Below, piece after piece: positions 9,473 through 58,187 of a stretch of 64,000 bases of DNA; within the stretch, counting starts at the first letter, position 1; every line of letters starts with the position of its first letter. The notes beneath the pieces were generated by a model. The model was not told the origin of the DNA, made no database searches, and saw only the letters and a list, made by a program, of their open reading frames with translations. This DNA is from an uncultured Eubacteriales bacterium. Its GTDB lineage: Bacteria; Bacillota; Clostridia; Oscillospirales; Acutalibacteraceae. The DNA lies in NCBI GenBank assembly GCA_964370775.1, contig CAYJKT010000001.1, positions 89,542 through 153,541 on the forward strand. The letters run 5' to 3'. The translations under genes were made by a program, and so were the position numbers.

Positions 9473-10121
9473 GATGTATTATTTTTTCATGTCGATTAGC
9501 AACCTCTAAATCGTGAGTAACAGTGATAATAGTGGTGTTAAAATCGTGGTTCATTTTAAAAAGTAAATTAATGATATTATCCTTGTTTTCACCATCTAAA
9601 GAAGCAGTAGGTTCATCGCACAAAATAAGCTGAGGTTTCATAATTATAGCACGTGCAAATACAGCACGAGATTTTTCGCCACCAGAGCACTCTATTGGTT
9701 TCTTTTTTAATATTGATGAAATACCGATTGAATTAACGATATTTTCAAAACCTTTTGATAAATCATTTTTATGAGAAGTTGCGTACAGTAAAGGTAGCTT
9801 GATATTTTCTTCAATAGTTAAAGAATGAATTAAAGCTGATTCTTGAAGAACAAAACCAATCTTTTGATTACGCAATGTTGCTAGTTGTGTTAAATTCAAA
9901 GCGTCAGTTACAGAGCCAAAAAGCGTGTAATTGCCAATATAATGTGTGTCTAGCAAACCAAGAATATTGAGTAAAGTAGTTTTTCCTACGCCTGATTTTC
10001 CTACAATTGCAATTTTTTCACCAGCATATACTTCAAGATCAAAACCATTTAAAATTGAAAGATGTTGCTTTTTGCTTTTATATATTTTTTCGTGAATATT
10101 TAGGTCAATAATCTTTTTCAT
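9456..10121 (-). CDS. ABC transporter ATP-binding protein (MacB/FtsE/LolD-type)
   Basis: Walker A GKSGVGKTT, signature CSGGEKSRAVFARAI, Walker B ILCDEPTASLD; start trimmed to MKKIIDLN whose ATG overlaps permease stop (ATGA). Confidence 0.85.
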   Translation of the reverse strand: MKKIIDLNIHEKIYKSKKQHLSILNGFDLEVYAGEKIAIVGKSGVGKTTLLNILGLLDTHYIGNYTLFGSVTDALNLTQLATLRNQKIGFVLQESALIHSLTIEENIKLPLLYATSHKNDLSKGFENIVNSIGISSILKKKPIECSGGEKSRAVFARAIIMKPQLILCDEPTASLDGENKDNIINLLFKMNHDFNTTIITVTHDLEVANRHEKIIHLERVV

Positions 10122-11338
10122 TGTAACACCCCCAAAGAAATTGGAACTTTTTTTATTCTCCATATCACGACTTCGACAATAATTATCCCAATAATAATAT
10201 CAAAAAATAGCACTGCCAATAATGCGACCCAATCAATCTCAGCTAAGCCGAGGAAACCGAATGTAGCGAAGAAAAGCTCTTTTCTTGCCCAAAATCCGTA
10301 TCTTGAATATGCAGTTGTAGCAAAAAGTGCAACTAAATTTATTAAAAACAATATTCCATAGTAGCCATAAAAAATCTGTTTCAATCTCGAATAGCTTAAT
10401 CCAACAAACAAGTTAATGGTAAAATCTTTAATCATAAGGCGTATACCAACTAATGAACTCCAAACAGAAAGACAAGTTAAAATTATTACAACGATTATTG
10501 TTATTACACCAATGGTCTTTAATGAACTGAAATAATATTGATTAAAAAACTCAAAATTCTCTTGTTGCGTATTAAATTTAAAGTCTAAGCCTAAATTATC
10601 TTGAATAACTTCGCTTAATTCCTCAATTTTATCTTTTGAAGTTTGAACAAGTATAATGTCGAAAAGCCCATTAAGGTGAAGTCCAATATTTGAATTAGCT
10701 ATAAATTCTTCAGTTATAGGTAAAATAACAGAAAAATTATAATACTGTTTTGAACTGATTGCATAAAGATTAGAATGATATATATCCTGTTTCAAAATGC
10801 CTTGGACTTTCAGCGTTATAGTTTTTTCGAGTACAGGGTCTTCAATATTGAATGTAGAACCTAACGGATATGTTTCGCTTAACCCTTTTCCAATCAAAAC
10901 AGGAATTTCTATATCTCCATCAAAACTGTAATCAAAAACCAAATTTTCCCCTTGTGATATTTCAAATTGCTTATTCAAGTTATAATATTCTTCATTTATA
11001 TAAGCCACCGATACTTCCATATCATAAGTATTAGGTACTGGGATGGTAAATCCATCTGTAAACAAAGCATAGTTTAAATTATCATTTAAATAGTCGTAAA
11101 CTTTTTGTGTATCATCTTTATCAAGTATACCCATATCACTATCAATGCTTAAATTTGCAATATAATTACCTTCTTGATTTAAATATTTTATTTCATTATA
11201 CCCTTGCAGAGTAGATGTGACTGAACGAGTGGCAGTGAAAATTAGGTAATTACTCAAAAAGATCAATAAAAACACACCCAATATAATCATAGCCTTTCTT
11301 AGAAAAAATTTTACTATAAAAAAATTAAAGATTTTCAA
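10118..11338 (-). CDS. ABC transporter permease, FtsX-like (MacB/HrtB-type: N-terminal TM, about 230-aa extracytoplasmic domain, C-terminal 3-TM FtsX module)
   Basis: 406 aa; topology from hydrophobic segments; immediately followed by and coupled to ABC ATPase. Confidence 0.65.
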   Translation of the reverse strand: MKIFNFFIVKFFLRKAMIILGVFLLIFLSNYLIFTATRSVTSTLQGYNEIKYLNQEGNYIANLSIDSDMGILDKDDTQKVYDYLNDNLNYALFTDGFTIPVPNTYDMEVSVAYINEEYYNLNKQFEISQGENLVFDYSFDGDIEIPVLIGKGLSETYPLGSTFNIEDPVLEKTITLKVQGILKQDIYHSNLYAISSKQYYNFSVILPITEEFIANSNIGLHLNGLFDIILVQTSKDKIEELSEVIQDNLGLDFKFNTQQENFEFFNQYYFSSLKTIGVITIIVVIILTCLSVWSSLVGIRLMIKDFTINLFVGLSYSRLKQIFYGYYGILFLINLVALFATTAYSRYGFWARKELFFATFGFLGLAEIDWVALLAVLFFDIIIGIIIVEVVIWRIKKVPISLGVLQ

Positions 11339-11771
11339 ATTTTCTAACCTCCCTCGAACTGATTAATATATATATAACAAAAATACAAAATAAGTAAATG
11401 CTATTCTCTAAGTGTATATTCAAAATAATATTGACAATTAATGATAAGAAAAAAACAATTCCTAACATCATCAAACATTCAAGAACATAGCGAGTAATAA
11501 TGGCTTGCACGGTATCTCCTACAATAAATCTGCAATATACTTCCACCTTTTTTTTACGTAACACTTGGTAATGAAAAATTACCACGATGATTGAAAGAAA
11601 CAAGATAATATACTTTTGATAATTATACAATTGCATTAAAAAAATTTCCATGAGATGCGAATCTATACTTACTGTTTTAACAAAATCAAATATTATATTG
11701 AAAGCAAAGCAAAGCATATAGCAACTAAGTAATTCCAATCTATCTACATATCTAAACAAAGATTTACTCAT
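11325..11771 (-). CDS. hypothetical polytopic membrane protein (about 4 TM), 148 aa
   Basis: Hydrophobic segments; RBS AAGGAGAG; overlaps permease start by 14 nt, 27 nt after XRE gene stop. Confidence 0.45.
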   Translation of the reverse strand: MSKSLFRYVDRLELLSCYMLCFAFNIIFDFVKTVSIDSHLMEIFLMQLYNYQKYIILFLSIIVVIFHYQVLRKKKVEVYCRFIVGDTVQAIITRYVLECLMMLGIVFFLSLIVNIILNIHLENSIYLFCIFVIYILISSREVRKFENL

Positions 11772-11798
11772 TTATCTCTCCTTTTATGATGGCATATA

Positions 11799-12305
11799 TC
11801 ATCTTTTTCGTGTAAGAAATATTCCGATAATCGAACCTAGTAATGCTATTGGTGCTAATCGTACAAATAACCATTCGATACCGTGTAAAATTGTTCCTGC
11901 AACAGCTAAATCAGGTTTGCTATAATCCCATTCTAAATACGAACTGTTCATTAATAATAAGATTACAAAAAGTGCTACTATAGCCAAACTCACCGAAATG
12001 AAAAACACATGTAGCACTTTTCGTCTGGTGGCAATTATTTTAGATAATTGCAAATTGACTATCTCTAATTTCTCGGATATAGCTTTTAAGTCATCTGCAT
12101 TTTCTTGTGTAATGGATTCGCCAAGCAAAACACTTACTGGTGTTTCAAGATGTTCAGATATTAAAAGCAACATTTCTGAATCCGGAACAGACAATCCTTT
12201 CTCCCATTTTGATATAGTTTGTCGCACAACATTTAACTTTATAGCAAGTTCTTCTTGAGAAAGTCCTTTTGATTTTCTTATTATTTTAATATTTTCATTT
12301 AACAT
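11799..12305 (-). CDS. XRE-family helix-turn-helix transcriptional regulator with two C-terminal transmembrane helices (membrane-anchored)
   Basis: MLNENIKIIRKSKGLSQEELAIKLNVVRQTISKWEKGLSVPDSEMLLLISEHL is a canonical HTH_XRE; C-terminal VLHVFFISVSLAIVALFVILLLM and LAPIALLGSIIGIFLT helices; start set at ATG after AAGGGAGG RBS (track ORF extended upstream through the promoter). Confidence 0.7.
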   Translation of the reverse strand: MLNENIKIIRKSKGLSQEELAIKLNVVRQTISKWEKGLSVPDSEMLLLISEHLETPVSVLLGESITQENADDLKAISEKLEIVNLQLSKIIATRRKVLHVFFISVSLAIVALFVILLLMNSSYLEWDYSKPDLAVAGTILHGIEWLFVRLAPIALLGSIIGIFLTRKR

Positions 12306-12426
12306 GGTAAATACCTCCCTTATATTTGAAATTATAACCGATTTTTGCCCATTGCCACAAGCAACGCATGTTAACATTAGTGTTTTTCTTAAGAAAATAA
12401 GCAAAAAACTATCATACCGACAAAAT

Positions 12427-12465
12427 TAAGGCATAGACCGAACTAATTAGTTGCAATCTATGCCT
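12427..12465 (-). terminator. hairpin aaggcatag-N21-ctatgcctt just downstream of GGDEF/EAL gene stop
   Basis: 9-bp perfect inverted repeat 7 nt after stop codon on minus strand, followed by AATTTTGTC. Confidence 0.45.
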
Positions 12466-12471
12466 TTAAAT

Positions 12472-14679
12472 TTATTTATCCAAAAGTTCCTCAAATTCTT
12501 CTGATTTCATAGGTCTTGCGAAGTAGTAACCTTGAACAGAATAACAATTAACAGTACGTAAAAACTCTACTTGATCCTCGTACTCAATTCCTTCTGCTAC
12601 AACCTTAGAGCCTAAGCTAGTGATTAGATTGATAATACCTCGTAGAACGGTTTTTGCATTTTCACGATACTCCTCAGGGCAAGCGAAGAAAGTTCTATCA
12701 AGCTTAACAATGTCGAACTTATATTCTTTTAACATACCTAGCGCTGAATGACCAGAGCCAAAGTCGTCAATTGCTACCTTAAAGCCTGATTTGCGTAATG
12801 ATTGAAGTACATTGTTTAAGATATCTGCATTTTCTATAACTGCTGTTTCTGTGAGTTCTATCTCAAGATAGTCGACAGGAGTATTATGAGTATTAGCGAT
12901 TTCACGTATACGTTGTACAAAATCTGGGTTTAAAAGATGACGTCTTGAAAAGTTAACGGATATTGGAACACAAGGTTTATTCTCGCTTAATCTTCTGGAA
13001 ATTAGCTTGCAAGCAGTAGCGAAAATATATTCATCTAGAGTTGTGATAAAACCATTTTTCTCAAATAATGGTATAAAATCATTTGGGAAAACCATATTTC
13101 CGTCACTTTCGAACCAACGAACTAGAGCCTCTGCACCTACTATTGCGTTTTTCTCTAAATTATATTTTGGTTGTAAAAACATCTTGAATTCATCGTTTTT
13201 AAGCGAGTCTTCCATTTTGTTAGTAAGCTCTGTCATTCTTAGCCAATGGTTTTTGAAATCTTCATCATAATCATGCATTGCCCACCCTGATTGAGCACGA
13301 GCATAACCGTGTGCAATACTAACCTTGTTAATCATTTCTTCTACATTGTTTTCACTTTTCTCTAAAAAATATCTTCCATATCTAAAAACGAATATATGTT
13401 TTTTAAGTTCAGGTGATAATTGCCTCAATCTCTCGTTGTATTTTTCTCTGTTAGCAAAAAAATCAGTTACTTTAGATTTTTCAGCAAGTACTAAAAATTC
13501 ATCAGATCCAGTTCTTGCTACTTCTAATACCTTGCCTTTCATGCTTTTAATGATATTAGCCATTTCGCAAATTACTGCATCACCTGCATCTGAGCCAAAA
13601 GCTTCGTTAATTACTTTAAAGTTCTCTATATCGCCTTTTAACAAGATATAATTTGTGCCGTCAAAATTAGGGTTGTCGATAATTTTTTTCGTATTAAGTT
13701 TAAATTTAACAAGGTTTGAAACACCTGTTAGCTTATCATAGTATGCTTCTTTTTCAATCTGCTCAACTGTCTTTTTTCGCGCCCATAATATGTAAATTAT
13801 TAAAGCAGAAAAAACTAAAATCAAGCTGACACTTATTATTATCAAGCTAGAGATTATAGTGTCTCCGCTGCTAGACAAGTCACTTTCTGATATTTCAAAA
13901 AACAAACTCCAGTCATCTATACCAAGTGGGATATACTCACCCAACTTTTTTTCGCCAGCAATAGAAAAAGTTACGTCACCAGATGTCAAAGTAGAAAAAT
14001 CATTTAATATGTCACTATACTGCTTTCCGTCTTCAAAATCTGCACCTTTAAAGTTTTCTAAAGAGATAGGGAACGGGTAAGTGTGAAACATAATATCGCC
14101 AGCTGAATTAACAATCATAGAAGACCCACGACTATCTGTAACACCTACTAGCTGTGTAGCGAGGTCTTGTACGTCATACTCTGCAATTATTACTCCTTTT
14201 ATTTCTCCGTTAAAATAAATAGGTGCGCTTATTGTCAGTACAGAACTAGAAGAGTAATTAGATTCATAAATACTAGTCATTTCTACTTCACCATTTACTG
14301 CAGATATAAAATTAGGCTGAGTAGACACATCCGTATTATCTCCGTGTGAAGTAATTGCTTTTCCGTCAGTATTTGCTAGAATTATAGTTTCAATCTCAAA
14401 TTCCTCAACCCATAATTCCATTGATTTGTACAAAGTTTCATTATCAAAACCTATGTACCTAATAACGTCAACTATACCCTTTATATTGTCTTCTTTGTTA
14501 TGAATAATAAGCGATACTGCTTGGCTCTGTTCGTTAGCCATATCTTTAAGTGTAGATTTTGCAGAAGTTTCAAGCTCATTATACACCATATTATTGAACC
14601 ACAAAACAGCAAACAAATTAAGAATAAAGATAGCTAACATAATAACTATAATGATTATTCCTTTATTTTTTTTCTCCAT
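12472..14679 (-). CDS. c-di-GMP signalling protein: N-terminal TM + extracytoplasmic Cache-like sensor + TM + degenerate GGDEF (GSDEF) + EAL phosphodiesterase domain
   Basis: 735 aa; GGDEF region with ...RTGSDEFLVLAE (GG to GS); EAL motifs EALVRW, DDFGSGHSALGMLKEYKFDIVKLD; N-terminal signal/TM MEKKNKGIIIIVIMLAIFILNLFAVLWF. Confidence 0.85.
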   Translation of the reverse strand: MEKKNKGIIIIVIMLAIFILNLFAVLWFNNMVYNELETSAKSTLKDMANEQSQAVSLIIHNKEDNIKGIVDVIRYIGFDNETLYKSMELWVEEFEIETIILANTDGKAITSHGDNTDVSTQPNFISAVNGEVEMTSIYESNYSSSSVLTISAPIYFNGEIKGVIIAEYDVQDLATQLVGVTDSRGSSMIVNSAGDIMFHTYPFPISLENFKGADFEDGKQYSDILNDFSTLTSGDVTFSIAGEKKLGEYIPLGIDDWSLFFEISESDLSSSGDTIISSLIIISVSLILVFSALIIYILWARKKTVEQIEKEAYYDKLTGVSNLVKFKLNTKKIIDNPNFDGTNYILLKGDIENFKVINEAFGSDAGDAVICEMANIIKSMKGKVLEVARTGSDEFLVLAEKSKVTDFFANREKYNERLRQLSPELKKHIFVFRYGRYFLEKSENNVEEMINKVSIAHGYARAQSGWAMHDYDEDFKNHWLRMTELTNKMEDSLKNDEFKMFLQPKYNLEKNAIVGAEALVRWFESDGNMVFPNDFIPLFEKNGFITTLDEYIFATACKLISRRLSENKPCVPISVNFSRRHLLNPDFVQRIREIANTHNTPVDYLEIELTETAVIENADILNNVLQSLRKSGFKVAIDDFGSGHSALGMLKEYKFDIVKLDRTFFACPEEYRENAKTVLRGIINLITSLGSKVVAEGIEYEDQVEFLRTVNCYSVQGYYFARPMKSEEFEELLDK

Positions 14680-16814: not shown

Positions 16815-18356
16815 ATGGAATACATAATCATTATATTGCTAATAATAAGTATAGGCTTAAACATATTTATGCTTATTAAGTCACAAAATAAAAAAGATAA
16901 TTCATCTGAGATATTAAGTTTGATTGACGACACAAGCAGTAAAACAAAAAGTGAAGTAGTGACAGAGTTTGATAAGGCTCAAAAAAATACTATTGATTTT
17001 GTGCAAAAACAGTTAGAGATGTATAGCTCTAACCAAGTTAACACACAAAAACAACTTGCAGATATTGAAAGCAAAAGGTTTAGTGATTTTTCAGAGAATA
17101 CACAGAACTCTATTACCAATTTAAGAGAAACAGTTAACGAAATGTCGCTAAGAACAGACAAACGTTTTGTAGATTTTCAAAAACAAAACGAAGAAAGTCT
17201 TCAAAATAATATTGATTTTGTGCGAAAACAGCTAGAGACTTATAGCTCTAACCAAGTTAACACACAAAAACAACTTGCAGATATTGAAAGCAAAAGGTTT
17301 AGTGATTTTTCAGAGAACACACAGAACTCTATCACAAATTTAAGACGAACAGTTAACGAGATGTTGCAAACAACGGACAAGCGTTTTGTAGATTTTCAAA
17401 AACAAAACGAAGAAAGTCTTGAGAAAATGCGTAGCACACTAGAGAAAAAAGTTGTGGATATGCAAGTTAGCAACGAGAAAAAGCTTGATGAAATGCGTGC
17501 TACTGTAGACGAAAAACTGCAAAAAACATTAAATGACAGAATTAGCGAAAGCTTTAAAGTTGTTAGTGAAAGACTTGAACAAGTGTATAAATCTTTAGGA
17601 GAAATGCAAAAACTTAGCACAGGTGTTGATGATCTTAAAAAAGTGTTATCGAACGTTAAAACAAGAGGTATATTAGGCGAAGTTCAACTAGGGGCGATAC
17701 TAGAGCAAATTCTTAACAAAGAGCAATATGTGGAGAACTTCCCAACTAAAAAAGGGTCAAACGACAGGGTAGAATTTGCTGTTAAATTACCAGGTGATGA
17801 CAATGATTTTGTGTATCTGCCAATAGATGCGAAATTCCCAATGGACGCGTATCAAAACCTTTTAGAAGCGTATGACAGTGCAGACAAAGCGAAAGTTGAT
17901 GAGATGTCTAAGGTGTTGATTAATAGAATTAAAGGCTTTGCAAAAGACATTAAGAACAAGTATATTGATGTGCCACACACAACAGAATTTGCTGTAATGT
18001 TCTTGCCGATTGAGGGTTTATATGCAGAGGTTGTAAGGCTAGGTCTTGTTGAGCAATTACAAGCAGATAAGATAAACATTGCAGGGCCTACAACAATGGC
18101 GGCGTTGTTAAGTAGTTTGCAAATGGGATTTAAAACTCTGGCAATACAAAAACGTTCTAGCGAGGTTTGGAAAGTTCTAGAGGGTGTAAAACAAGAGTTC
18201 ACAAAATTTGGAGATGCACTAGAAAAAACAAGACAAAGAATGAAGCAAACTTCTGATGAACTTGATAAACTTGTGACAACTAGAACCAACGCAATTAATA
18301 GAAAGCTTAGAGATGTAAGCACAATTGACGGAATAGACAGTGGAAATGAAGAATAG
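16815..18356 (+). CDS. rmuC: DNA recombination protein RmuC, with internal in-frame tandem duplication
   Basis: C-terminal RmuC core VLSNVKTRGILGEVQLGAILEQIL...YLPIDAKFPMDAYQ; N-terminal coiled-coil region. Confidence 0.8.
   Translation: MEYIIIILLIISIGLNIFMLIKSQNKKDNSSEILSLIDDTSSKTKSEVVTEFDKAQKNTIDFVQKQLEMYSSNQVNTQKQLADIESKRFSDFSENTQNSITNLRETVNEMSLRTDKRFVDFQKQNEESLQNNIDFVRKQLETYSSNQVNTQKQLADIESKRFSDFSENTQNSITNLRRTVNEMLQTTDKRFVDFQKQNEESLEKMRSTLEKKVVDMQVSNEKKLDEMRATVDEKLQKTLNDRISESFKVVSERLEQVYKSLGEMQKLSTGVDDLKKVLSNVKTRGILGEVQLGAILEQILNKEQYVENFPTKKGSNDRVEFAVKLPGDDNDFVYLPIDAKFPMDAYQNLLEAYDSADKAKVDEMSKVLINRIKGFAKDIKNKYIDVPHTTEFAVMFLPIEGLYAEVVRLGLVEQLQADKINIAGPTTMAALLSSLQMGFKTLAIQKRSSEVWKVLEGVKQEFTKFGDALEKTRQRMKQTSDELDKLVTTRTNAINRKLRDVSTIDGIDSGNEE
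16992..17429 (+). repeat. 2 x 219-bp in-frame tandem repeat (73 aa each, about 90 percent nt identity) inside rmuC
   Basis: attgattttgtgc(a/g)aaaacag... unit restarts at 17211; protein repeat IDFV(Q/R)KQLE.YSSNQVNTQKQLADIESKRFSDFSENTQNSITNLR.TVNEM...DKRFVDFQKQNEESL. Confidence 0.85.
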
Positions 18357-20098: not shown

Positions 20099-20560
20099 TT
20101 AATATAATTCGAAAACAGCTTCAATTTCTACAGGGATATTAGATGGCAATGCGTTCATTCCAACGGCAGAGCGTGCTGGTGGTGTAGGTAAAATTGATAC
20201 TAACAGTTCACTTGCTCCATTCGCAACTGCTGGTTGGTCGTAAAACTCGTTTGTTCCAGCAACAAAAACTAAAAGTTTAACTGCTTGCTTAACATTGTTT
20301 AAATCTCCAATTTCTGCTTTTAAAACAGCTAAAACATTTAACATACAGTTCCTTGCATATTCTTTGCCTTGCTCAATTGTAAATTCAGCACCGAGTTTAC
20401 CAGCGTAAGTTAAACCGTTTAAATTAGGACCACAACCTGAAACATAACAAAGTTTTTCGTTTTCTCCAAACCTAACACAAGGTGTGTACACGCCTCCTTT
20501 AGGTGGTGCTTGTGGTAAAGTGATGTTTAATTCGAGTAATTTTTGTTCAATATTTGACAT
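20099..20560 (-). CDS. RidA family protein (YjgF/TdcF; reactive enamine/imine deaminase)
   Basis: 153 aa; typical RidA length and motifs (..VYTPCVRFG...AVGMNALP..VEIEAVFEL). Confidence 0.8.
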   Translation of the reverse strand: MSNIEQKLLELNITLPQAPPKGGVYTPCVRFGENEKLCYVSGCGPNLNGLTYAGKLGAEFTIEQGKEYARNCMLNVLAVLKAEIGDLNNVKQAVKLLVFVAGTNEFYDQPAVANGASELLVSILPTPPARSAVGMNALPSNIPVEIEAVFELY

Positions 20561-20579
20561 TGTTCATTTCCTTTCTTTA

Positions 20580-22166
20580 TTATGATTTTATAACAATACC
20601 ATTTTTCAATATAGGTGTTTCATCGCTAAAAACAGTCTCTCCACCAATTATCACGTGCTTCATACCAGTAGAAAGTAGGGTAGGGGTAGAAAAATTAGCA
20701 TTATCGCTTATATCATCTAAGTTAAAAATGTTTATATCTGCGTCTGCACCGATTTCTATTCTACCTTTCTGTGGCATAGAAAATCTATCGGCTGGCATTG
20801 CAGTCATTTTATTAATAGCTTGTGGTAAAGTTAATATTTTTCTGTCTCTCACATATTCTCTAAGCAGTTTTGAGAAAGAAGCGTTTAATCTAGGGTGAGG
20901 AAAATCAGCAGAACCATACAGTGCGTCCGAAATCAAAGCAGAGTAATTTAAACTGACGATAGTGTCGAGATCTTCTTGGCATATACTCATGACGATAATG
21001 CTCACTTTACCTTTTTCTTCAACCAATAGCTCAGATATAAACTTAACAGGAGTGTCAAAATTATATTCTTCACAAATACTAGCAATGGATTTACCACAAT
21101 ATACTTTGTTTTTGTCTAGCGTTAATCCACTAATAATAATTCGATCCCAACCTATATCCAAAACCATGTTACCCCATGATTTATGCACCATGTAAATCTC
21201 TTTTTCTAATAAATCCACTTCTGATTTAAGCTCTAATCTCCTAAGTGTGTCACCAGTTCCTTTATCAGTGAAAGTGGGTGGAATAAGGCTGATTAACGTG
21301 GTAGAGCCTCCTAAAAATGGGTAAAAATCTACACTGACTTCATAACCTAGAGCACGCTCTTTTTCTATAATTTCTATCGATTTATATATCTCATCATGCC
21401 AATTTTTTACACCAACAGATTTAAAATGACTGATATTTACCCTTAGATTTGCTCGTTTTCCAATATCAATTATCTCATGAACATGAGCAGATAAATCAGT
21501 GCTTTCACATCTTATATGAGAAGTCAATATCTTATCATACTTAGCAGAAACGGACAATAAACGAACATATTCGTCAGCTGTCGTGTAACATTCTGGAGGA
21601 TACATAAGTCCACAGGATATTCCAAGAGCACCTTCTTGCATGGCTGTGCTCAATAAATACTGTGCTATTTCCATTTCTTTTTGAGTAAAAGGTGAATTAC
21701 TAAAACCTTTAACACTTGTTTTTATAGCGCCAGTCGCTGATAAAGCTCCTGTGTTTAGATACCTTTTTTCTTTGGCAATCTCTGCTAAAAAATCGCCTAC
21801 ATTGTCATATATTACATCATTTACAGTAGTTCCTAGGCAAGGTGCCAAAAAAGAATATTGTGGCTCTTGTATCTTTATATTGCACGGATATGGTGCAAGT
21901 CCACAGTTTCCACAAATAGCAGTGGTGATACCTTGTGCAAGCTCAGTATGTCCAAAAGACGGATTTTCTGTAACCTCAAAGTCAAAGTGCCGATGTGTGT
22001 CCACAAAACCTGGTGTAGCAAGTAAACCTTTTGCATCAATTACTCTTTCACATTCACAATTAAATCTACCAATGTCTTTAATCTTGCAGTTTTCTACTAA
22101 TATATCGCCCATAAAAAGCTCAGTATTCTTACCGTCACAAATATTAGCATTTGTTATTTTTAACAT
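20580..22166 (-). CDS. metal-dependent amidohydrolase, N-acyl-D-amino-acid deacylase (D-aminoacylase)-like
   Basis: 528 aa; N-terminal metal motif GFVDTHRHFD; overall D-aminoacylase-like architecture; start overlaps upstream gene stop by 1 nt. Confidence 0.6.
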   Translation of the reverse strand: MLKITNANICDGKNTELFMGDILVENCKIKDIGRFNCECERVIDAKGLLATPGFVDTHRHFDFEVTENPSFGHTELAQGITTAICGNCGLAPYPCNIKIQEPQYSFLAPCLGTTVNDVIYDNVGDFLAEIAKEKRYLNTGALSATGAIKTSVKGFSNSPFTQKEMEIAQYLLSTAMQEGALGISCGLMYPPECYTTADEYVRLLSVSAKYDKILTSHIRCESTDLSAHVHEIIDIGKRANLRVNISHFKSVGVKNWHDEIYKSIEIIEKERALGYEVSVDFYPFLGGSTTLISLIPPTFTDKGTGDTLRRLELKSEVDLLEKEIYMVHKSWGNMVLDIGWDRIIISGLTLDKNKVYCGKSIASICEEYNFDTPVKFISELLVEEKGKVSIIVMSICQEDLDTIVSLNYSALISDALYGSADFPHPRLNASFSKLLREYVRDRKILTLPQAINKMTAMPADRFSMPQKGRIEIGADADINIFNLDDISDNANFSTPTLLSTGMKHVIIGGETVFSDETPILKNGIVIKS

Positions 22167-23278
22167 TATATAACAGAACCTCTCGCATCAACCTTAACAA
22201 GTGTTAAGGTGTTGTATTCTAATATATACACATTATTTTGCAGATTAACTGCTGGGCAAACATGAATAGGTATAAGTCGTACAATGTCGCCGACCTTTAA
22301 ATTTGTATAGCCGTCATCTGCTGTCAGTATTCCATGTTCCTCGCTTAATCTAGTTAGCTTTAGATTTTTATTACCAAGCACATGTGCAAAACCTTCATAG
22401 TAATATGGTGGTAGATTAGGGACTACATCAGTTGGGAAAGTCTTGCTACCTCCGTCAATTACAGCATAAGAAGTGCAAGGAGTACTTACAACAGTTGCAT
22501 ATATGCTAAGAGCAATGTCATCAAGCTTTACTATGCCTTCTTTATAAAGCATGTAGTCGTTAAAAATATAGGTGCCTGGTCGAATTTCATTCACCTTACC
22601 AGTCTGTGCAACAAGTACACCTGTAGGAGATGAACCAGCGCTTATATCCTTAATATTGATACCGTTTTCAATCAATAAATTAGCTACACTTTCCATAAGT
22701 TGCCCCTCTTCTATAGCGGCAATTTTAGGGTCAGTAGTTGGTTTGTTGTCGTATATTAAACTTTTAAAAGTAAAAATTCCTGTAAGGTTAAGATTAGGCA
22801 TTTCTGAAATAGTTTTTGCAAGCAATACAATGTCTTTTTGCACACCAGTACGTTTAGCGCCTGTATCTATTTCTAGACGAACTTCAAAAGTTAAGTTGTT
22901 ATCCTTAGCACACTGTTGCAAACCTAATGCACCCTCGATACTGTCAACTGCAAGAATTAGTCTCTTTACCTTAGACGCAAGAGAGGGGAGCTTATCGGTT
23001 TTTGCCTTGCCTATGATTGGGTAAGCTATGAAAATATCATCTATTCCACCATCAGCCATAACCATTGCTTCTGAGATTTTTGCGCAAGTTATACCGACTG
23101 CACCAGCTTCTATTTGCATTTTAGCAAAAGCAACCATTTTGTGTGTTTTTATGTGAGGTCGTAAGTTGCACTTTGCTTTAAGTGCGTGTTGTTGCATGTT
23201 AGAAATATTTTTTTTAGCCTTAGCGTTGTCGACAACTATGCATGGTGTTTGCAAACTTTGAAGTAAATCTAGTTCCAT
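22166..23278 (-). CDS. PLP-dependent alanine-racemase-fold enzyme of the DSD1/D-threonine aldolase/YhfX family (putative D-serine/D-threonine dehydratase)
   Basis: LRPHIKTHKMVAFAKMQIEAG (KTHK PLP-lysine motif of DSD1/D-TA family); start set at MELDLL after GGAG. Confidence 0.6.
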   Translation of the reverse strand: MELDLLQSLQTPCIVVDNAKAKKNISNMQQHALKAKCNLRPHIKTHKMVAFAKMQIEAGAVGITCAKISEAMVMADGGIDDIFIAYPIIGKAKTDKLPSLASKVKRLILAVDSIEGALGLQQCAKDNNLTFEVRLEIDTGAKRTGVQKDIVLLAKTISEMPNLNLTGIFTFKSLIYDNKPTTDPKIAAIEEGQLMESVANLLIENGINIKDISAGSSPTGVLVAQTGKVNEIRPGTYIFNDYMLYKEGIVKLDDIALSIYATVVSTPCTSYAVIDGGSKTFPTDVVPNLPPYYYEGFAHVLGNKNLKLTRLSEEHGILTADDGYTNLKVGDIVRLIPIHVCPAVNLQNNVYILEYNTLTLVKVDARGSVI

Positions 23279-23310
23279 ATTCATGCTCCAATCAATATTA
23301 TTATGTAAAT

Positions 23311-23339
23311 ATAGTAACTAGTTTTAATGTGTATGTCAA
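23311..23339 (-). promoter_or_regulatory. candidate promoter of the D-amino-acid operon (TTGACA-17-TACTAT) abutting the NACHT gene 3' end
   Basis: Minus strand atcTTGACAtacacattaaaactagtTACTAT about 35 nt upstream of start. Confidence 0.4.
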
Positions 23340-23359: not shown

Positions 23360-25819
23360 TTATTTTGTTGAATTTGCTAGGTGTTTTTCTATAATACTTC
23401 CTTTATCGTATATAGCGTTATCAAATATAGCGCCGTCTAAAATAGCGTTATTAAAATTTGCGCCTCGTAAATCGCAATTTGAAAAATTTGTGCCACTTAG
23501 GTTTGCATAAGTAAAGTTTGCACTTATAAGCTTAGAATTACTAAAATCTGAGTTATGTATATTGGCACGGTAAAAATCTGAGTCGTTCATAGTGCAATTG
23601 ATTAATTCTGCATCATAAAAATAAGCATTATAAAAAGAAGAATTAATAAGATTAACTTCGTAGAAATCGGCTTCGAAAATAGTAGCGTAAGAAAAATCGC
23701 TATCATTTAGAGTGCATTCAAATAAATATGCTGAATTTAATATAGCCCTAGAAAAATTTGAATATATCATAGTAGAATCTATAATATAAACACTTGTTAA
23801 ATCCGAATTAGCAAAAATCGAATTAGCTAGGTTGGAGTTGGATAAATTAATACCATCAAGATCTGAAAATGACAAGTCACAAGAAGAAAAATTTATATTT
23901 ACTAAAGAAGCGCCATTCAATAGACTTCTTCTTAAGTCACAATCTTTTGCTACTGTATTCTGCAAATATAGTCCAGCACAGTCATAAGCTTGAATGCATG
24001 AATGAATATTATTTAGCCTAATCTTTGTGTTTGTAATCGTATTTGCAACTAAAATAATATTAAAAAAACTTAACTCGGCTTGGCGTAATCTGTTACCCTT
24101 AGTAGGGTTTTTCGGTATGCAATTTGTTGTAGCAATAAAATTTTCTAATTTTCTTGTGTTTAAATCAAAGTAATTGATATTAGTCAGATTATAGATAAAA
24201 CCTACAATATCTTCATCAATTAAGTCGTAAGATAAACTCTCACAAAGGGTTTCGTAGTCTTCGTTAACTAACAGATTAAATATATATTTTGCAAAGAAAA
24301 ATTGATAAAATGATCGATGAATAAATTCTACTCTGTTGTCACTTACTCTTGTGTAAAAATGTGCTAAAACAGGTGTAATGTTTTGGGTAACTGGGTTTTC
24401 GTCGTTTTTGTAATACTCAAAAGCACATTGATTTAAACTATCGTGAAAATGTGCAATGTCATCAAGTCCATTACCTATTCTAGTGCGTTCTCGCTCGGTA
24501 ATTTTATCTAAGATAGCGATATACAAATCGGCTCTATTTCTCATGTTGGAATACACACCATAAAATGCAACTAATTGCAATAACAACGGTATACTGACAA
24601 GGTCATACAAAGTCTTATGTTCTGTCAAATCTGCTTCAGTACACTGGTATTTTATTTCACTCATAGAATTATATACATCAATCCAATTTACTATCTCTTT
24701 TGGGTTGAGGGTTCTTAATGTTTGAACTGTGACAGAATGTTTTTCTAGGTTATCTGTAATATAATTAGGACGTGAAGATATGACAAACTTAACTTTATTA
24801 TACTTTTGCAGATAAGTTACAAGAGATGTTTCTGCTTTTTCTTTTGTCGTGTCAAGTATCTCTCTTAGCGTATCGATTACCTCATCAAAGCCGTCTAAAT
24901 ACACTGCTAAATTATTTTCTTTTGTCAGTTGAATTTCCGTGTCTAGGTCTAGTTTAAAACCAATTTTCTCAATACCTAGTGGAGTTGCTATTACTTTTAC
25001 ATTACTGCTATTGATAATGTCGGTAAGCTTGATGTAGGCGATGTTTTCAATCTTTCCGTCAAACAGTTGTTTGTTGCTAGTAACAAAGTCATATAGCAAC
25101 TTTATGCCTAAACTGCTCTTCCCATGACCTGCTTCGCCAGTAATAAACATAATGTTTTGTTCTGAGTTCAACCATTTGCTGATTGTAGGGTATATGTCAC
25201 CACTCTCAAAATGAGGTTCTATGTAGTAATCTTTAAGCTTAAATTCGTCACCTATAATCAAATTTTTACGCTCGTAAATATAAGTCATGTCTTTGTAATG
25301 GCTATCGAAAATACTAGGTGGTGGGGGAGGTGATGTTAATTTTTCAAGCAATTCGATAAGTTTTTTAATTTCAGCACCCAATATTTTAGTGCTATGATTA
25401 ACAACACTTCTTTGCTCGTCATTCAATGGGTTTAGTGAATAGAATAAGTAATAATATAAAAATGTTAAAATGTTGATTATCTGATTTTTTTTATGAACAT
25501 TTATAGCTTTTCCAGACGAGCTGTAATACATATTAACTTGCATTTCAATGCTATCACATATCTCGTCGTGTGTTTTACTTAATTCATATTTTGCCATATA
25601 ATACATTGTTTCTGCAAGACCTGTATTACCAAAAATCAGCTCTATTTCATCTGTATAGCTATCGTCTATATTAAAAGATAAATCCATTTCCTTGAACTCA
25701 TCAAAGAATTTTTGGTTCTGTTTAATTTTTTTTGCTTCTTTATATTTAACAGAGATTTTACTCCAAGCTAAGTCCCAAATCTTCCCACTTAAAAAAGAAG
25801 CCAACCCTAATTCTACCAT
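23360..25819 (-). CDS. STAND NTPase of the NACHT clade (bacterial NLR-like): unknown N-terminal domain (~165 aa) - PPPPP linker - NACHT - helical region - C-terminal pentapeptide repeats
   Basis: Walker A FITGEAGHGKSSLG; NACHT-type Walker B VYLDGFDEVID (hhhhDGhDE); C-terminus with >15 A(D/N)LxxA(N/D)F pentapeptide repeats (e.g. ANFTYANLSGTNFSNCDLRGANFNNAILDGAIF); start at MVELGL after GGGAGG RBS (track ORF begins at an upstream GTG inside the RBS). Confidence 0.8.
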   Translation of the reverse strand: MVELGLASFLSGKIWDLAWSKISVKYKEAKKIKQNQKFFDEFKEMDLSFNIDDSYTDEIELIFGNTGLAETMYYMAKYELSKTHDEICDSIEMQVNMYYSSSGKAINVHKKNQIINILTFLYYYLFYSLNPLNDEQRSVVNHSTKILGAEIKKLIELLEKLTSPPPPPSIFDSHYKDMTYIYERKNLIIGDEFKLKDYYIEPHFESGDIYPTISKWLNSEQNIMFITGEAGHGKSSLGIKLLYDFVTSNKQLFDGKIENIAYIKLTDIINSSNVKVIATPLGIEKIGFKLDLDTEIQLTKENNLAVYLDGFDEVIDTLREILDTTKEKAETSLVTYLQKYNKVKFVISSRPNYITDNLEKHSVTVQTLRTLNPKEIVNWIDVYNSMSEIKYQCTEADLTEHKTLYDLVSIPLLLQLVAFYGVYSNMRNRADLYIAILDKITERERTRIGNGLDDIAHFHDSLNQCAFEYYKNDENPVTQNITPVLAHFYTRVSDNRVEFIHRSFYQFFFAKYIFNLLVNEDYETLCESLSYDLIDEDIVGFIYNLTNINYFDLNTRKLENFIATTNCIPKNPTKGNRLRQAELSFFNIILVANTITNTKIRLNNIHSCIQAYDCAGLYLQNTVAKDCDLRRSLLNGASLVNINFSSCDLSFSDLDGINLSNSNLANSIFANSDLTSVYIIDSTMIYSNFSRAILNSAYLFECTLNDSDFSYATIFEADFYEVNLINSSFYNAYFYDAELINCTMNDSDFYRANIHNSDFSNSKLISANFTYANLSGTNFSNCDLRGANFNNAILDGAIFDNAIYDKGSIIEKHLANSTK

Positions 25820-25893
25820 GCCAAAACCTCCCACAGTTATTTCAATAATTTTACCATATATTGTAAAAAAATGAAATAGTTTGTAGAAAAAAA

Positions 25894-25919
25894 GTAGCCA
25901 TGAAATTAATCATGGCTAC
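25894..25919 (-). terminator. terminator of PASTA gene (gtagccatg-N8-catggctac + T7 on minus strand), separating it from NACHT gene
   Basis: 9-bp perfect stem followed by TTTTTTT on minus strand. Confidence 0.6.
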
Positions 25920-25925
25920 TGAGCT

Positions 25926-27788
25926 TTATTCGGTTACCGTTGTAGTATCTGTTGCAGTATCTGGAGTGATAGTGCCGTCTGGTACAGTGGTGTCTGGTTC
26001 TTCGGTTGGTGGAGTAACTGGTATTTCTACTTCTTCGCCTCCTAAAGATAGCGTAATAGATGAACCCAGTGCAACTGTAGAGCCTGCTGTAGCAGATTGT
26101 GCCACAACTTTGTCTTGCATGTTTTCTACAAAGTCACCTGTTGTGTAAGTGATAGAGAATAGCTTATCATAACCATTATTTATGATTTCAGCCTCTGTCA
26201 TTCCACTAAAATCTGGTACAGTTTGAACATTGTTAACAGGTACATATTTGATGTGAATTTCTGTACCTTGTTGTGTTTCGTACCCAGCTTCTAAGCTTTG
26301 CCACCACACTTCGCCTTGCAATCTGCCCTCTGCATATTCAGCAGTGAAAACAGGTACTAACTGTAGCTCGTTGCATATCTCCATAGCTTTTTCCCTTGTC
26401 ATAATGTCTGAGTATGCATTGCCAGCATTTAGTACTAAATCTGGAACATAAACTACATCACCTTTTGACACAACTAAGTTTAGTGTAGTTGATATACCTA
26501 TTTTTGTTGACTCTTTGTCTTGTGTTAGAATTGTACCACTGCTTAGTTCAGAGGTTGTGTATTGGATAGACACTTTTAGACTAGCACCTAACTCGTTATA
26601 TGGTTCTATCCAAGTGTAAACAGAATCAATGCTTTGTCCAACGAAAGATGGAACAGTAAAGCTGTTTCCTAAAGAATAAGTAAGCTCAATAATTTGGTCG
26701 TCATACAAAGTACCTGACTCAACTGATTGATATATCAGATTACCTTCGTTAGAGCTTGAATATTTCTCTTTAACTATAGTCATTATACCAAGTTGAGAAG
26801 CCACAGCAGATGCTTTTTCTTGAGAATATTCATAGAAGTTAGGAACAATTATTTCTTCACCTTTTGATACATTCAAGGTGATAGTATCGCCCTCTCTAAC
26901 AACTTCTTCAGCTTTGATGCTTTGTTTAAAGATAGTGTTTTCTGGGTAAGTATCATGGAATTCTTCAATCAATTCTAGCTTAATATTATTTTCTTCTGCA
27001 AAAGTTTTAGTAGCTTCTAAAGTCATGGTTGTAAAGTCTGGCAGAGTAACTGCTTCGCCCTCGCCTTGTCCTTTAGAGAACACTACGTACAGTGGGCTAT
27101 CTCTGCGAATTTCTTTATCCAAAACGCTGTCGTCGTTTATTGTGAACGAGATAACCTCGCCCTCTGGCACAGTTTCGCTGTCTTCTGATGTCACACGAAC
27201 TTTGCTCATGTGGTTTTCTTCCGCCCAATCTTCAACCTCTGCCATAGTCATAGCTTCAATATCTGGCACTGCTACCAAGATGCTTAAATCAGGTCCGTTA
27301 GATATTGTAAGCTCTATAAAGCTACCACTGCTAACAGTTTCGCCCTCTACTGGGTTTTGTACAAATATTTCATTAAGTGCAACAGTGTCGCTATACTCTG
27401 TTTCTGCACGAATTAGAACATCATTTTCGGTCGCCCAAAGTTCTGCTTCGGTTCGTGTCCAGCCTATCATGTTTGGAACAGCAGTGCCTCTGTTTAAAAG
27501 AATTACTGTTACAATAATCGCAATAACAGCTACAACTGCTATACCGATATAGACAACAGGAATGTGTCTCTCGGTAGTTTTTGCTCGGTTTCTGTTTCTT
27601 GGAGGTTCAAAACTGCTTTGTTCCTCAAAGTTAAAGTTATCGCTACTGCTACTTAGCTCGTTAGTATCAGCATCTTGTGTAGTTTTTAGTGTCCTGTTTG
27701 TAGGTCTAACACTCTCCAATTCGCTAGGGATATTCTCTGTGTTAGATTCATTGTTTCTTTTGTAGTTGTTCAAAAAATTGTTGTCCAT
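25926..27788 (-). CDS. membrane-anchored protein with seven tandem PASTA domains and no kinase or transpeptidase domain; disordered cytoplasmic N-tail, Thr/Pro/Asp-rich C-tail
   Basis: TM HIPVVYIGIAVVAVIAIIVTVILL then 7 repeats each starting (V/T)VP(D/N/S)(F/M/I/L) and about 65-70 aa long, ending ..SKG(D/E/Q). Confidence 0.7.
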   Translation of the reverse strand: MDNNFLNNYKRNNESNTENIPSELESVRPTNRTLKTTQDADTNELSSSSDNFNFEEQSSFEPPRNRNRAKTTERHIPVVYIGIAVVAVIAIIVTVILLNRGTAVPNMIGWTRTEAELWATENDVLIRAETEYSDTVALNEIFVQNPVEGETVSSGSFIELTISNGPDLSILVAVPDIEAMTMAEVEDWAEENHMSKVRVTSEDSETVPEGEVISFTINDDSVLDKEIRRDSPLYVVFSKGQGEGEAVTLPDFTTMTLEATKTFAEENNIKLELIEEFHDTYPENTIFKQSIKAEEVVREGDTITLNVSKGEEIIVPNFYEYSQEKASAVASQLGIMTIVKEKYSSSNEGNLIYQSVESGTLYDDQIIELTYSLGNSFTVPSFVGQSIDSVYTWIEPYNELGASLKVSIQYTTSELSSGTILTQDKESTKIGISTTLNLVVSKGDVVYVPDLVLNAGNAYSDIMTREKAMEICNELQLVPVFTAEYAEGRLQGEVWWQSLEAGYETQQGTEIHIKYVPVNNVQTVPDFSGMTEAEIINNGYDKLFSITYTTGDFVENMQDKVVAQSATAGSTVALGSSITLSLGGEEVEIPVTPPTEEPDTTVPDGTITPDTATDTTTVTE

Positions 27789-57600: not shown

Positions 57601-57930
57601 TTAGATTATTTCAATTTCAGAAAAAACAATATCAATAGCTCTTTTTAGCAAATCGCTAGGAAGTGTCTCGGCAACTTTATACTGTCGCGCTGATAAATCC
57701 AGTGCTTTTACGTGTTCACAAAGAATAACCCCAGTAGTAACAGTTCTCTCATCAAGTGGAATGTGTAGAGGGAAATTATTATTTGTGTTTGTAATAGGGC
57801 ATACAATGGTTAAATTTGTCTTTTGATTAAAAAAGTTATTACTTAGTACAACTGCTGGTCTATATCCTGCCTGTTCATGACCTGACTGAGGGTTAAAGTT
57901 CACTTTAATTATATCGCCTTGTTTTACCAT
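57601..57930 (-). CDS. mazF: type II toxin-antitoxin system toxin, MazF/PemK family endoribonuclease
   Basis: MVKQGDIIKVNFNPQSGHEQAGYRPAVVLS...VCPITN canonical PemK/MazF. Confidence 0.85.
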   Translation of the reverse strand: MVKQGDIIKVNFNPQSGHEQAGYRPAVVLSNNFFNQKTNLTIVCPITNTNNNFPLHIPLDERTVTTGVILCEHVKALDLSARQYKVAETLPSDLLKRAIDIVFSEIEII

Positions 57931-58169
57931 ACTTCATCACCAACTGGTTCGCCCCAATCAACATTTTGAGGAGTATATTCGCCGTCAAAATTCGCAAAAA
58001 GTTCTTTAATATTTTTGCGTTCTTTGTGGACTACTTTTTCAATTACTAGTTTGCCATTTTGAGCAGTTATTTCAATTTCTTCGTTTTCATTCCACTTTAT
58101 AGAATCAAGCAAATGTTTTGGTAAACGAATACCTTGAGAATTACCCCATTTTTGAATATTAGTAGTCAT
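57924..58169 (-). CDS. mazE: antitoxin MazE/PemI (SpoVT/AbrB-type)
   Basis: MTTNIQKWGNSQGIRLPKHLLDSI swapped-hairpin AbrB motif; overlaps mazF start; start after AAAGGA RBS. Confidence 0.75.
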   Translation of the reverse strand: MTTNIQKWGNSQGIRLPKHLLDSIKWNENEEIEITAQNGKLVIEKVVHKERKNIKELFANFDGEYTPQNVDWGEPVGDEVW

Positions 58170-58187
58170 AGATAACCATCCTTTCAT

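Follow-up and report, generated by a model that had tools for sequence, protein, structure and literature searches.

The question raised by the stretch of DNA analysed here, 64,000 nucleotides (nt) from an uncultured Eubacteriales bacterium (GenBank assembly GCA_964370775.1, contig CAYJKT010000001.1; hereafter the window), is whether a gene on its minus strand, at positions 23360..25819, encodes a bacterial relative of the nucleotide-binding leucine-rich repeat (NLR) immune receptors, and which parts of its product would sense and which would act. The product, of 819 amino acids (aa), is tripartite: a 163-aa helical N-terminal domain (N-domain), a NACHT module composed of a nucleotide-binding domain (NBD), a first helical domain (HD1), a winged-helix domain (WHD) and a second helical domain (HD2), and a solenoid of about 190 aa made of pentapeptide repeats. 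Bacterial NACHT (bNACHT) proteins defend against phage (Kibby et al., bioRxiv 10.1101/2022.07.19.500537; Cell 2023). We propose, with a probability of about 0.65, that this one is a single-polypeptide, NLR-related NTPase of the bNACHT type within the STAND class (signal transduction ATPases with numerous domains), most likely acting as an intracellular sensor and switch in immunity against phages or mobile elements. The defence function is put forward by analogy with the precedents of NLRs, Avs and bNACHT proteins.

The gene is complete, with 819 codons and a stop, as supported by the open reading frame (ORF) list, by homologues and by one identical NCBI protein, P0001. In full, the minus-strand ORF spans 23360..25834 and encodes 824 aa when counted from a GTG; this GTG, at 25834, overlaps the Shine-Dalgarno sequence, and the ATG at 25819 has a 7-nt spacer from the ribosome-binding site (RBS) GGGAGG (25827..25832, minus strand), which gives the 819-aa product. 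A promoter-like sequence, TCTACA-16-TACAAT, was found by consensus scan at 25860..25887 (minus strand; 9/12 positions), and such matches are frequent in the AT-rich DNA of the window (23 observed for 15.7 expected). Beyond it, an intrinsic terminator at 25893..25920 (minus strand; 11-bp stem with 5 GC pairs, followed by a T-run) belongs to the upstream PASTA gene and marks a transcription-unit boundary. Thus the elements from which the earlier note, made from the letters of this DNA, had read a separate transcription unit are all in place. In the signal scan no terminator was found downstream of the gene, and the promoter of the next operon, TTGACA-17-TACTAT (23339..23311), begins 21 nt past the stop codon, not about 40 nt as that note had estimated. 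The note had also described the gene as more AT-rich than its neighbours. Its GC content is indeed 31.2%, where genes average 35.6% (sd 2.9), and ranks fifth lowest among 45 ORFs, but the deviation is mild (z = -1.5) and the GC content at third codon positions (GC3) is normal (z = -0.36), so that the low GC reflects amino-acid composition and not foreign codon usage. The suggestion of a compact insertion found little support, because GC3 is normal, no flanking repeats are present and the neighbourhood is housekeeping.

All the motifs of the NTPase are intact. The N-domain (aa 1-163, 25331..25819; this and all following segments of the gene are on the minus strand) is followed by a PPPPP linker (aa 164-168, 25316..25330), then by the pre-NACHT segment and the NBD (aa 169-370, 24710..25315). 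Within the latter lie the Walker A motif GEAGHGKSS (aa 228-236, 25112..25138), of which G233 and K234 do not vary among the 41 family members aligned, the Walker B motif AVYLDGFDE with the NACHT signature (aa 305-313, 24881..24907), in which E313 never varies and conservation is at least 90% at D309, G310 and D312, and the sensor-1 region VISSRP (aa 346-351, 24767..24784), in which S349 and R350 are likewise at least 90% conserved. HD1, the WHD and HD2 occupy aa 371-612 (23984..24709), as delimited by the structural model and by alignment with the NBD-HD1-WHD of NLRs; in the WHD motif FIHRSFYQFF (aa 499-508), residues H501, R502, F504 and Y505 are nearly invariant in the family alignment. The aligned relatives share the motifs LIxGEPGHGK[ST], LxFLDGFDEL, VVTSR, LLGIPxLF and GFxHRSFYQYFLA, in which we recognise Walker A, the D[GAS]hDE form of Walker B, sensor 1 and the winged-helix His motif. 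This form of Walker B separates NACHT from other STAND proteins (Kibby et al., bioRxiv 10.1101/2022.07.19.500537).

Profile and structure searches point to the same family. The 41-member family profile, compared with all PDB sequences, retrieved only NLRP3, NLRP14, NLRP2, NLRP5, NLRC4 and NOD2, besides pentapeptide proteins. An AlphaFold2 (AF2) model built on the family alignment reached a mean predicted local distance difference test (pLDDT) score of 81.3 and a predicted template modelling (pTM) score of 0.71, against a pLDDT of 32 for the prediction from the single sequence; its weak stretches are aa 1-52, 143-167 and 273-295, and most of HD1, WHD and HD2 exceeds 80. Foldseek placed NLRC4 first (3.8e-12), followed by NOD2 and NLRP3, and the winged-helix extension of STAND proteins is present past the AAA+ core, in the order NBD-HD1-WHD. 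Pfam NACHT (PF05729) gives 21.0 bits on the protein alone (E 3.3e-4), under the gathering score of 26.7; the other weak Pfam matches are nSTAND3, NPHP3_N and NB-ARC (13.8 bits). Among relatives, P0032 (42.7 bits), P0015 (28.8) and P0036 (28.4) pass the gathering score, and of 45 diverse relatives 23 match with E below 1e-4, down to 1.5e-19. By the PDB profile and the Pfam scores, the protein is nearer to NACHT than to the other STAND clades (AP-ATPase/NB-ARC, MalT/SWACOS). We therefore accept it as a stand-alone NACHT-clade STAND NTPase at the level of the family, the profile and the predicted fold, while the hidden Markov model (HMM) score of the single sequence stays under threshold. The NACHT assignment of the earlier note stands to that extent.

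The family to which the protein belongs is sparse and diverse. An exhaustive HMMER search with aa 1-615 against 1.84 billion representative proteins returned 102 matches at E<=1e-3, 28 of them at <=1e-10; word-indexed searches, whether with the whole protein or with its first 615 aa, returned only the protein itself and one relative of 25% identity, pentapeptide words having saturated the filter. The sole close relative, P0012, is 44% identical across aa 169-595. Pfam pentapeptide repeats were found in 29 of the 45 diverse relatives scanned, and the order variable N-terminus, NACHT, pentapeptide repeats was seen in all ten relatives examined individually. The N-termini of 77 relatives make up 37 or more clusters that are unrelated to one another. 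Recognisable ones include a calcineurin-like metallophosphoesterase (P0013, which matches the PADLOC 'Endonuclease effector'), an Mrr-type restriction endonuclease (P0020, which matches pAgo-associated effector models) and NNH3 helical domains. Sixty family loci come from JGI/ENA metagenomes, many from assemblies of the OCTX/OCVV/ODAI/AUXO series, and two relatives lie on IMG/VR contigs; plasmid and phage records gave no tblastn match. Two metagenomic members, L026 9473..14854 and L027 683..6082, are about 1,800 aa long, roughly double the usual length, which suggests that they carry large extra C-terminal extensions past the NACHT-pentapeptide core.

For the genomic contexts of the relatives, ORFs were called up to 4.5 kb from the family gene, and 28 non-redundant loci yielded 130 of them. 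Resolvase was the commonest neighbour family (6), ahead of SIR2_2 (4), type I restriction-modification (subunits at 3 loci) and McrBC (2), with SWI2/SNF2 and ResIII helicases also among the most frequent; P0002 is flanked by a helix-turn-helix gene and four serine-recombinase genes. A constant NTPase core, cassette-like N-termini that include nucleases, a patchy distribution and neighbours of the mobile and defence kinds make up the pattern of a bacterial NLR-like defence gene, and the family behaves as a conflict-system family. None of the window's own neighbour genes recurs at any of the 58 family loci, and there is therefore no conserved partner gene. The gene also has an RBS and a promoter-like site of its own and a terminator upstream of it, and on these grounds it is a putative single-gene unit.

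In the mechanism that we propose, the solenoid, together with the WHD and HD2, would hold the NACHT module closed and ADP-bound in the resting state. A ligand derived from the phage, or a host component perturbed by it, would bind the acidic β-solenoid and relieve this inhibition; nucleotide exchange would then allow the NACHT modules to oligomerise, and oligomerisation would bring the N-terminal domains into a cluster. Once clustered, these domains would arrest growth or kill the cell, either by their own activity or through one that they recruit, as in abortive infection. Two things make us propose the N-domain as output module: it stands in the effector position, and it has been exchanged as a cassette between unrelated scaffolds.

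Several observations weigh against this proposal. The NACHT score of the single sequence is subthreshold, as described above, and the PADLOC check that the earlier note had called for yielded no defence system: no model of PADLOC-DB v2 was significant, the sole match being PDC-S41 (E 0.024, 11 bits). In the searchable literature, no experimental work was found on any NACHT-pentapeptide protein. The N-domain has no recognisable catalytic motif and no transmembrane (TM) segment, its model is of moderate-to-low confidence, and its putative role as effector is argued from position only. The window locus is ordinary chromosome of housekeeping character, not a defence island; neither direct nor inverted repeats that could be insertion scars were found bracketing the gene; and the GC3 of the gene is typical for the genome.

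The N-domain is all-helical in the AF2 model, with about eight helices (pLDDT 58-82 for aa 53-140, below 50 for aa 1-52), and it matches nothing in Pfam (E up to 10), NCBIfam, PADLOC or, by profile, the PDB, so that the description of this N-terminus as bearing no recognised motif was accurate. It contains no TM segment (the maximum Kyte-Doolittle mean over 19 residues is 1.2), and a membrane-inserting N-domain is unsupported, both by this hydropathy and by the polar character of the homologous helix in P0021. Comparison by hhalign with 20 other N-terminal types of the family gave no relation (probability <=2%). Its only detectable homologue is in P0021 (aa 19-152, 36% identity), and the domain was thus seen twice among the representative proteins searched. 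No further carriers were found with a profile made of the two copies in a 5.8-billion-protein index, nor in the JGI metagenomes or IMG/VR.

P0021 is a protein of 1237 aa that lacks a P-loop/Walker A and has no Pfam, PADLOC or PDB match; the idea that it is a degenerate STAND protein was ruled out (hhalign probability 0.1% against NACHT, Walker A absent). Its gene lies in a defence island, in which ThsB-TIR and ThsA-Macro immediately precede it, KwaA/KwaB and a SIR2 protein of 939 aa lie downstream, and a PemK toxin and a serine recombinase are nearby. Together with a 315-aa gene 6 nt downstream, it occupies positions 10001..14667 of locus L025 (GCA_964370635.1, contig CAYJJU010000008.1), between Thoeris on one side and Kiwa and SIR2 on the other, and the pair is a candidate for an uncharacterised two-gene defence system that shares the N-domain with the window protein. 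By these sequence comparisons the N-domain is a rare module, exchanged among unrelated scaffolds in the setting of conflict systems. It is undescribed, yet unclassified N-termini are the rule in the NACHT-pentapeptide family.

The same data bear on an alternative in which the N-domain is an adaptor that, in the manner of Death-like, CARD and EAD domains, would bring in an effector encoded by another gene, by homotypic or heterotypic interaction, once the NACHT modules have oligomerised; the protein would then not be a true single-gene system. The domain is all-helical, non-catalytic in appearance and without a TM segment, Kibby et al. recognise 'adaptor' domains as one class of bacterial NACHT N-termini, and the P0021 gene immediately precedes the uncharacterised 315-aa gene, all of which would fit. 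However, tblastn found no second copy of the N-domain in the window, in the 24-kb P0021 locus or in the other fetched loci, the protein, metagenome and viral searches found no further carriers, and the window and P0021 loci have no gene in common except an unrelated PemK toxin. We consider an adaptor role unlikely, and keep the single-polypeptide sensor and switch as the preferred reading.

The solenoid covers aa 613-805 (23405..23983) and is the putative sensor. Pfam Pentapeptide (PF00805) matches the protein at E = 1.3e-29, and 38-39 pentads, forming about 9.6 coils, keep a single unbroken register, with a centre position that is 97.5% hydrophobic and a small residue (A/S/C) at i-2. These tandem A(D/N)LXX pentads, which form a quadrilateral β-helix, are contiguous and confidently modelled. 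The Walker A GEAGHGKSS, the DGFDE of Walker B, the PPPPP linker and the contiguous C-terminal pentapeptides, as first picked out from the letters of this DNA, have accordingly all been recovered. At the 3' end of the gene (window 23403..23471), 15-nt periodic DNA repeats of 65-87% identity, the only periodic ones found, are the nucleotide trace of the pentapeptides and no separate element. The net charge of the solenoid is -16 and its isoelectric point (pI) 4.05; in the relatives the pI spans 4.3-8.8, and acidity is not conserved.

Such acidity invites the main rival reading, of opposite polarity, in which the solenoid would be an output that mimics B-DNA, as in MfpA, Qnr and AlbG, and the N-domain an input or regulatory part: freed or multimerised by the NACHT switch, the solenoid would tie up a target, either DNA gyrase/topoisomerase or a DNA-binding protein of the phage. 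Indeed, the domain is strongly acidic, the NCBIfam Qnr and MfpA models match it in part, and pentapeptide repeats occupy effector positions in other NTPase conflict systems, where they can inhibit DNA-binding proteins (Kaur et al. 2020). Yet the acidity is not kept in relatives, and the partial matches fall far under the cut-offs of those families (Qnr 65.2 bits for a cut-off of 240, MfpA 39 for 360), which does not place the solenoid among their members. MfpA, Qnr, AlbG and HetL are stand-alone dimers of about 200 aa, whereas here the solenoid is the C-terminal domain of an 819-aa NTPase. It is the C-terminal repeats that are constant in the family and the recognisable effectors (Mrr, metallophosphoesterase) that are N-terminal, which is the usual NLR polarity. 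A reversed polarity thus appears distinctly improbable. A further, joint possibility would combine a sensing solenoid with DNA mimicry: the N-domain would be an undescribed death or effector module shared with P0021, and the acidic solenoid a decoy that imitates DNA to trap a DNA-binding protein of the phage. We hold this combination to be improbable; if true, the protein would be the first β-solenoid 'DNA-decoy' pattern-recognition receptor.

The surroundings of the gene in the window also bear on its function. Upstream lie genes for a five-PASTA protein without a kinase domain, an ABC-2 transporter and an SPFH protein. The first (25926..27788, minus strand; 620 aa) has five PASTA domains, a disordered N-terminus rich in Ser, Asn and Glu, and one TM helix, and its gene ends in the strong terminator mentioned above; since Pfam gives no kinase or transpeptidase domain, we describe it as a PASTA-only membrane protein. 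Downstream lies a D-amino-acid cassette (20099..23284, minus strand) coding for an Ala_racemase_N/D-Ser-dehydratase-like protein, a D-aminoacylase-like amidohydrolase and RidA. It is kept as a block, with differing flanks, in at least 12 distant metagenome-assembled genomes of Clostridia, Oscillospiraceae and spirochaetes (loci L002-L018), in none of which a NACHT or PASTA gene stands beside it, and it looks like a mobile or modular unit of D-amino-acid catabolism. The best match of the enzyme flanking the NACHT gene downstream is 62% identical (185,579 species genomes).

A housekeeping or regulatory STAND switch, such as an envelope- or stress-signalling ATPase coupled by read-through from the PASTA gene or into the cassette, would suit a gene that is co-directional with both and stands between them, has no terminator after it to keep transcription from entering the cassette, and has a housekeeping neighbourhood and a native-like GC3, but it is very unlikely in view of the strong terminator that separates the PASTA and NACHT genes, the cassette's own near-consensus promoter, the absence of linkage (0/23 conserved-cassette loci, 0/58 family loci), the lack of a DNA-binding or other regulatory output domain in Pfam, a family so patchy that only one homologue exceeds 30% identity among all the representatives, and members with nuclease N-termini near mobile and defence genes.

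Farther out, the window holds genes for GH2, sulfatase, GGDEF-EAL, S1, cyclophilin and RmuC proteins and glycosidases. The GGDEF-EAL protein (735 aa; 12472..14679, minus strand) and the RmuC-family protein (513 aa; 16815..18356, plus strand), encoded at a distance of about 5-10 kb from the NACHT gene, are ordinary chromosomal proteins with no evident link to it. A mazEF-type pair is found at 57601..58187 on the minus strand, between his genes and an ABC exporter pair. It encodes a PemK/MazF-like toxin of 109 aa (57601..57930), 31% identical to the PemK gene product of the P0021 island, and an AbrB/MazE-like antitoxin of 87 aa (57924..58187), with the sequence QKWGNSQGIRLPK. Scanning the window for tRNAs and Rfam families gave no match.

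How far does the window protein resemble known systems? Its closest structural matches, the animal NLRs NLRC4, NOD2 and NLRP3, have leucine-rich repeats (LRR) where it has a pentapeptide solenoid, and a CARD or PYD at the N-terminus where it has a helical domain; sequence identity is about 12-16%. With the proteins of the Avs/AVAST systems (Gao et al. 2022) it shares the layout of a single-gene STAND protein with an N-terminal effector (Mrr and metallophosphoesterase, among others, in relatives of the window protein) and a C-terminal sensor. Avs sensors bind conserved phage proteins, which would be a likely mode of action for the window protein as well. These sensors, however, are helical or TPR-like bundles, FGE-sulfatase or WD40 domains, and no Avs model is significant on the window protein. 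The text of a 2026 census of STAND proteins (10.64898/2026.01.04.697583) treats helical, FGE-sulfatase and WD40 sensors and leaves pentapeptide sensors unmentioned.

With bNACHT proteins the window protein shares the build of one polypeptide chain that has its output part at the N-terminus, NACHT in the middle and a repeat sensor at the C-terminus, as well as Walker A, the D[GAS]hDE form of Walker B, a WHD and N-terminal modules that vary greatly. The proteins tested in the preprint differ in having LRR, HEAT, TM or NCH1/short C-termini and restriction endonuclease, TIR or NNH1 N-termini, with no pentapeptide sensor stated; the N-domain of the window protein is not among the named domains and has no PADLOC match, and the host here is a low-GC, Clostridia-like genome of an uncultured type, not a proteobacterium. 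The architecture as a whole recurs in the NNH3-NACHT-pentapeptide proteins (PF22735, PF05729 and PF00805; for example P0005 and P0008), which have the same type of C-terminal solenoid and distantly homologous NACHT domains (22-29% identity) and differ in the N-terminus, hhalign giving no relation between NNH3-type N-termini and the N-domain (probability 0.1%).

The earlier note had regarded both the domain combination and the N-terminal module as possibly uncharacterised. The combination is already catalogued: 'Pp' figures in the architecture key of Kibby et al., who name pentapeptide repeats among the sensor-type superstructure repeats of bacterial NACHTs, and Pfam annotates the NNH3-NACHT-pentapeptide proteins. 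The N-terminal module, on the other hand, matches nothing described, and the interpretation offered in that note is, overall, partly supported. Because the second occurrence of the N-domain sits between Thoeris and Kiwa, it is a candidate for a new effector or adaptor module. As bacterial NACHT proteins whose N-termini are unclassified number in the thousands, the protein would be an incremental addition unless an unusual trigger or output emerges.

Characterised sensors of Avs and bNACHT proteins are helical repeats, LRR, WD40 or FGE domains, whereas the pentapeptide solenoid is catalogued among bacterial NLR sensors but has apparently never been probed experimentally. Once found, the ligand of a rigid, DNA-shaped, acidic β-helix would widen what is known of bacterial pattern recognition. 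The window protein, which would come as no surprise to a specialist, is a reasonable experimental entry to the pentapeptide sensor class and to a rare candidate output domain.

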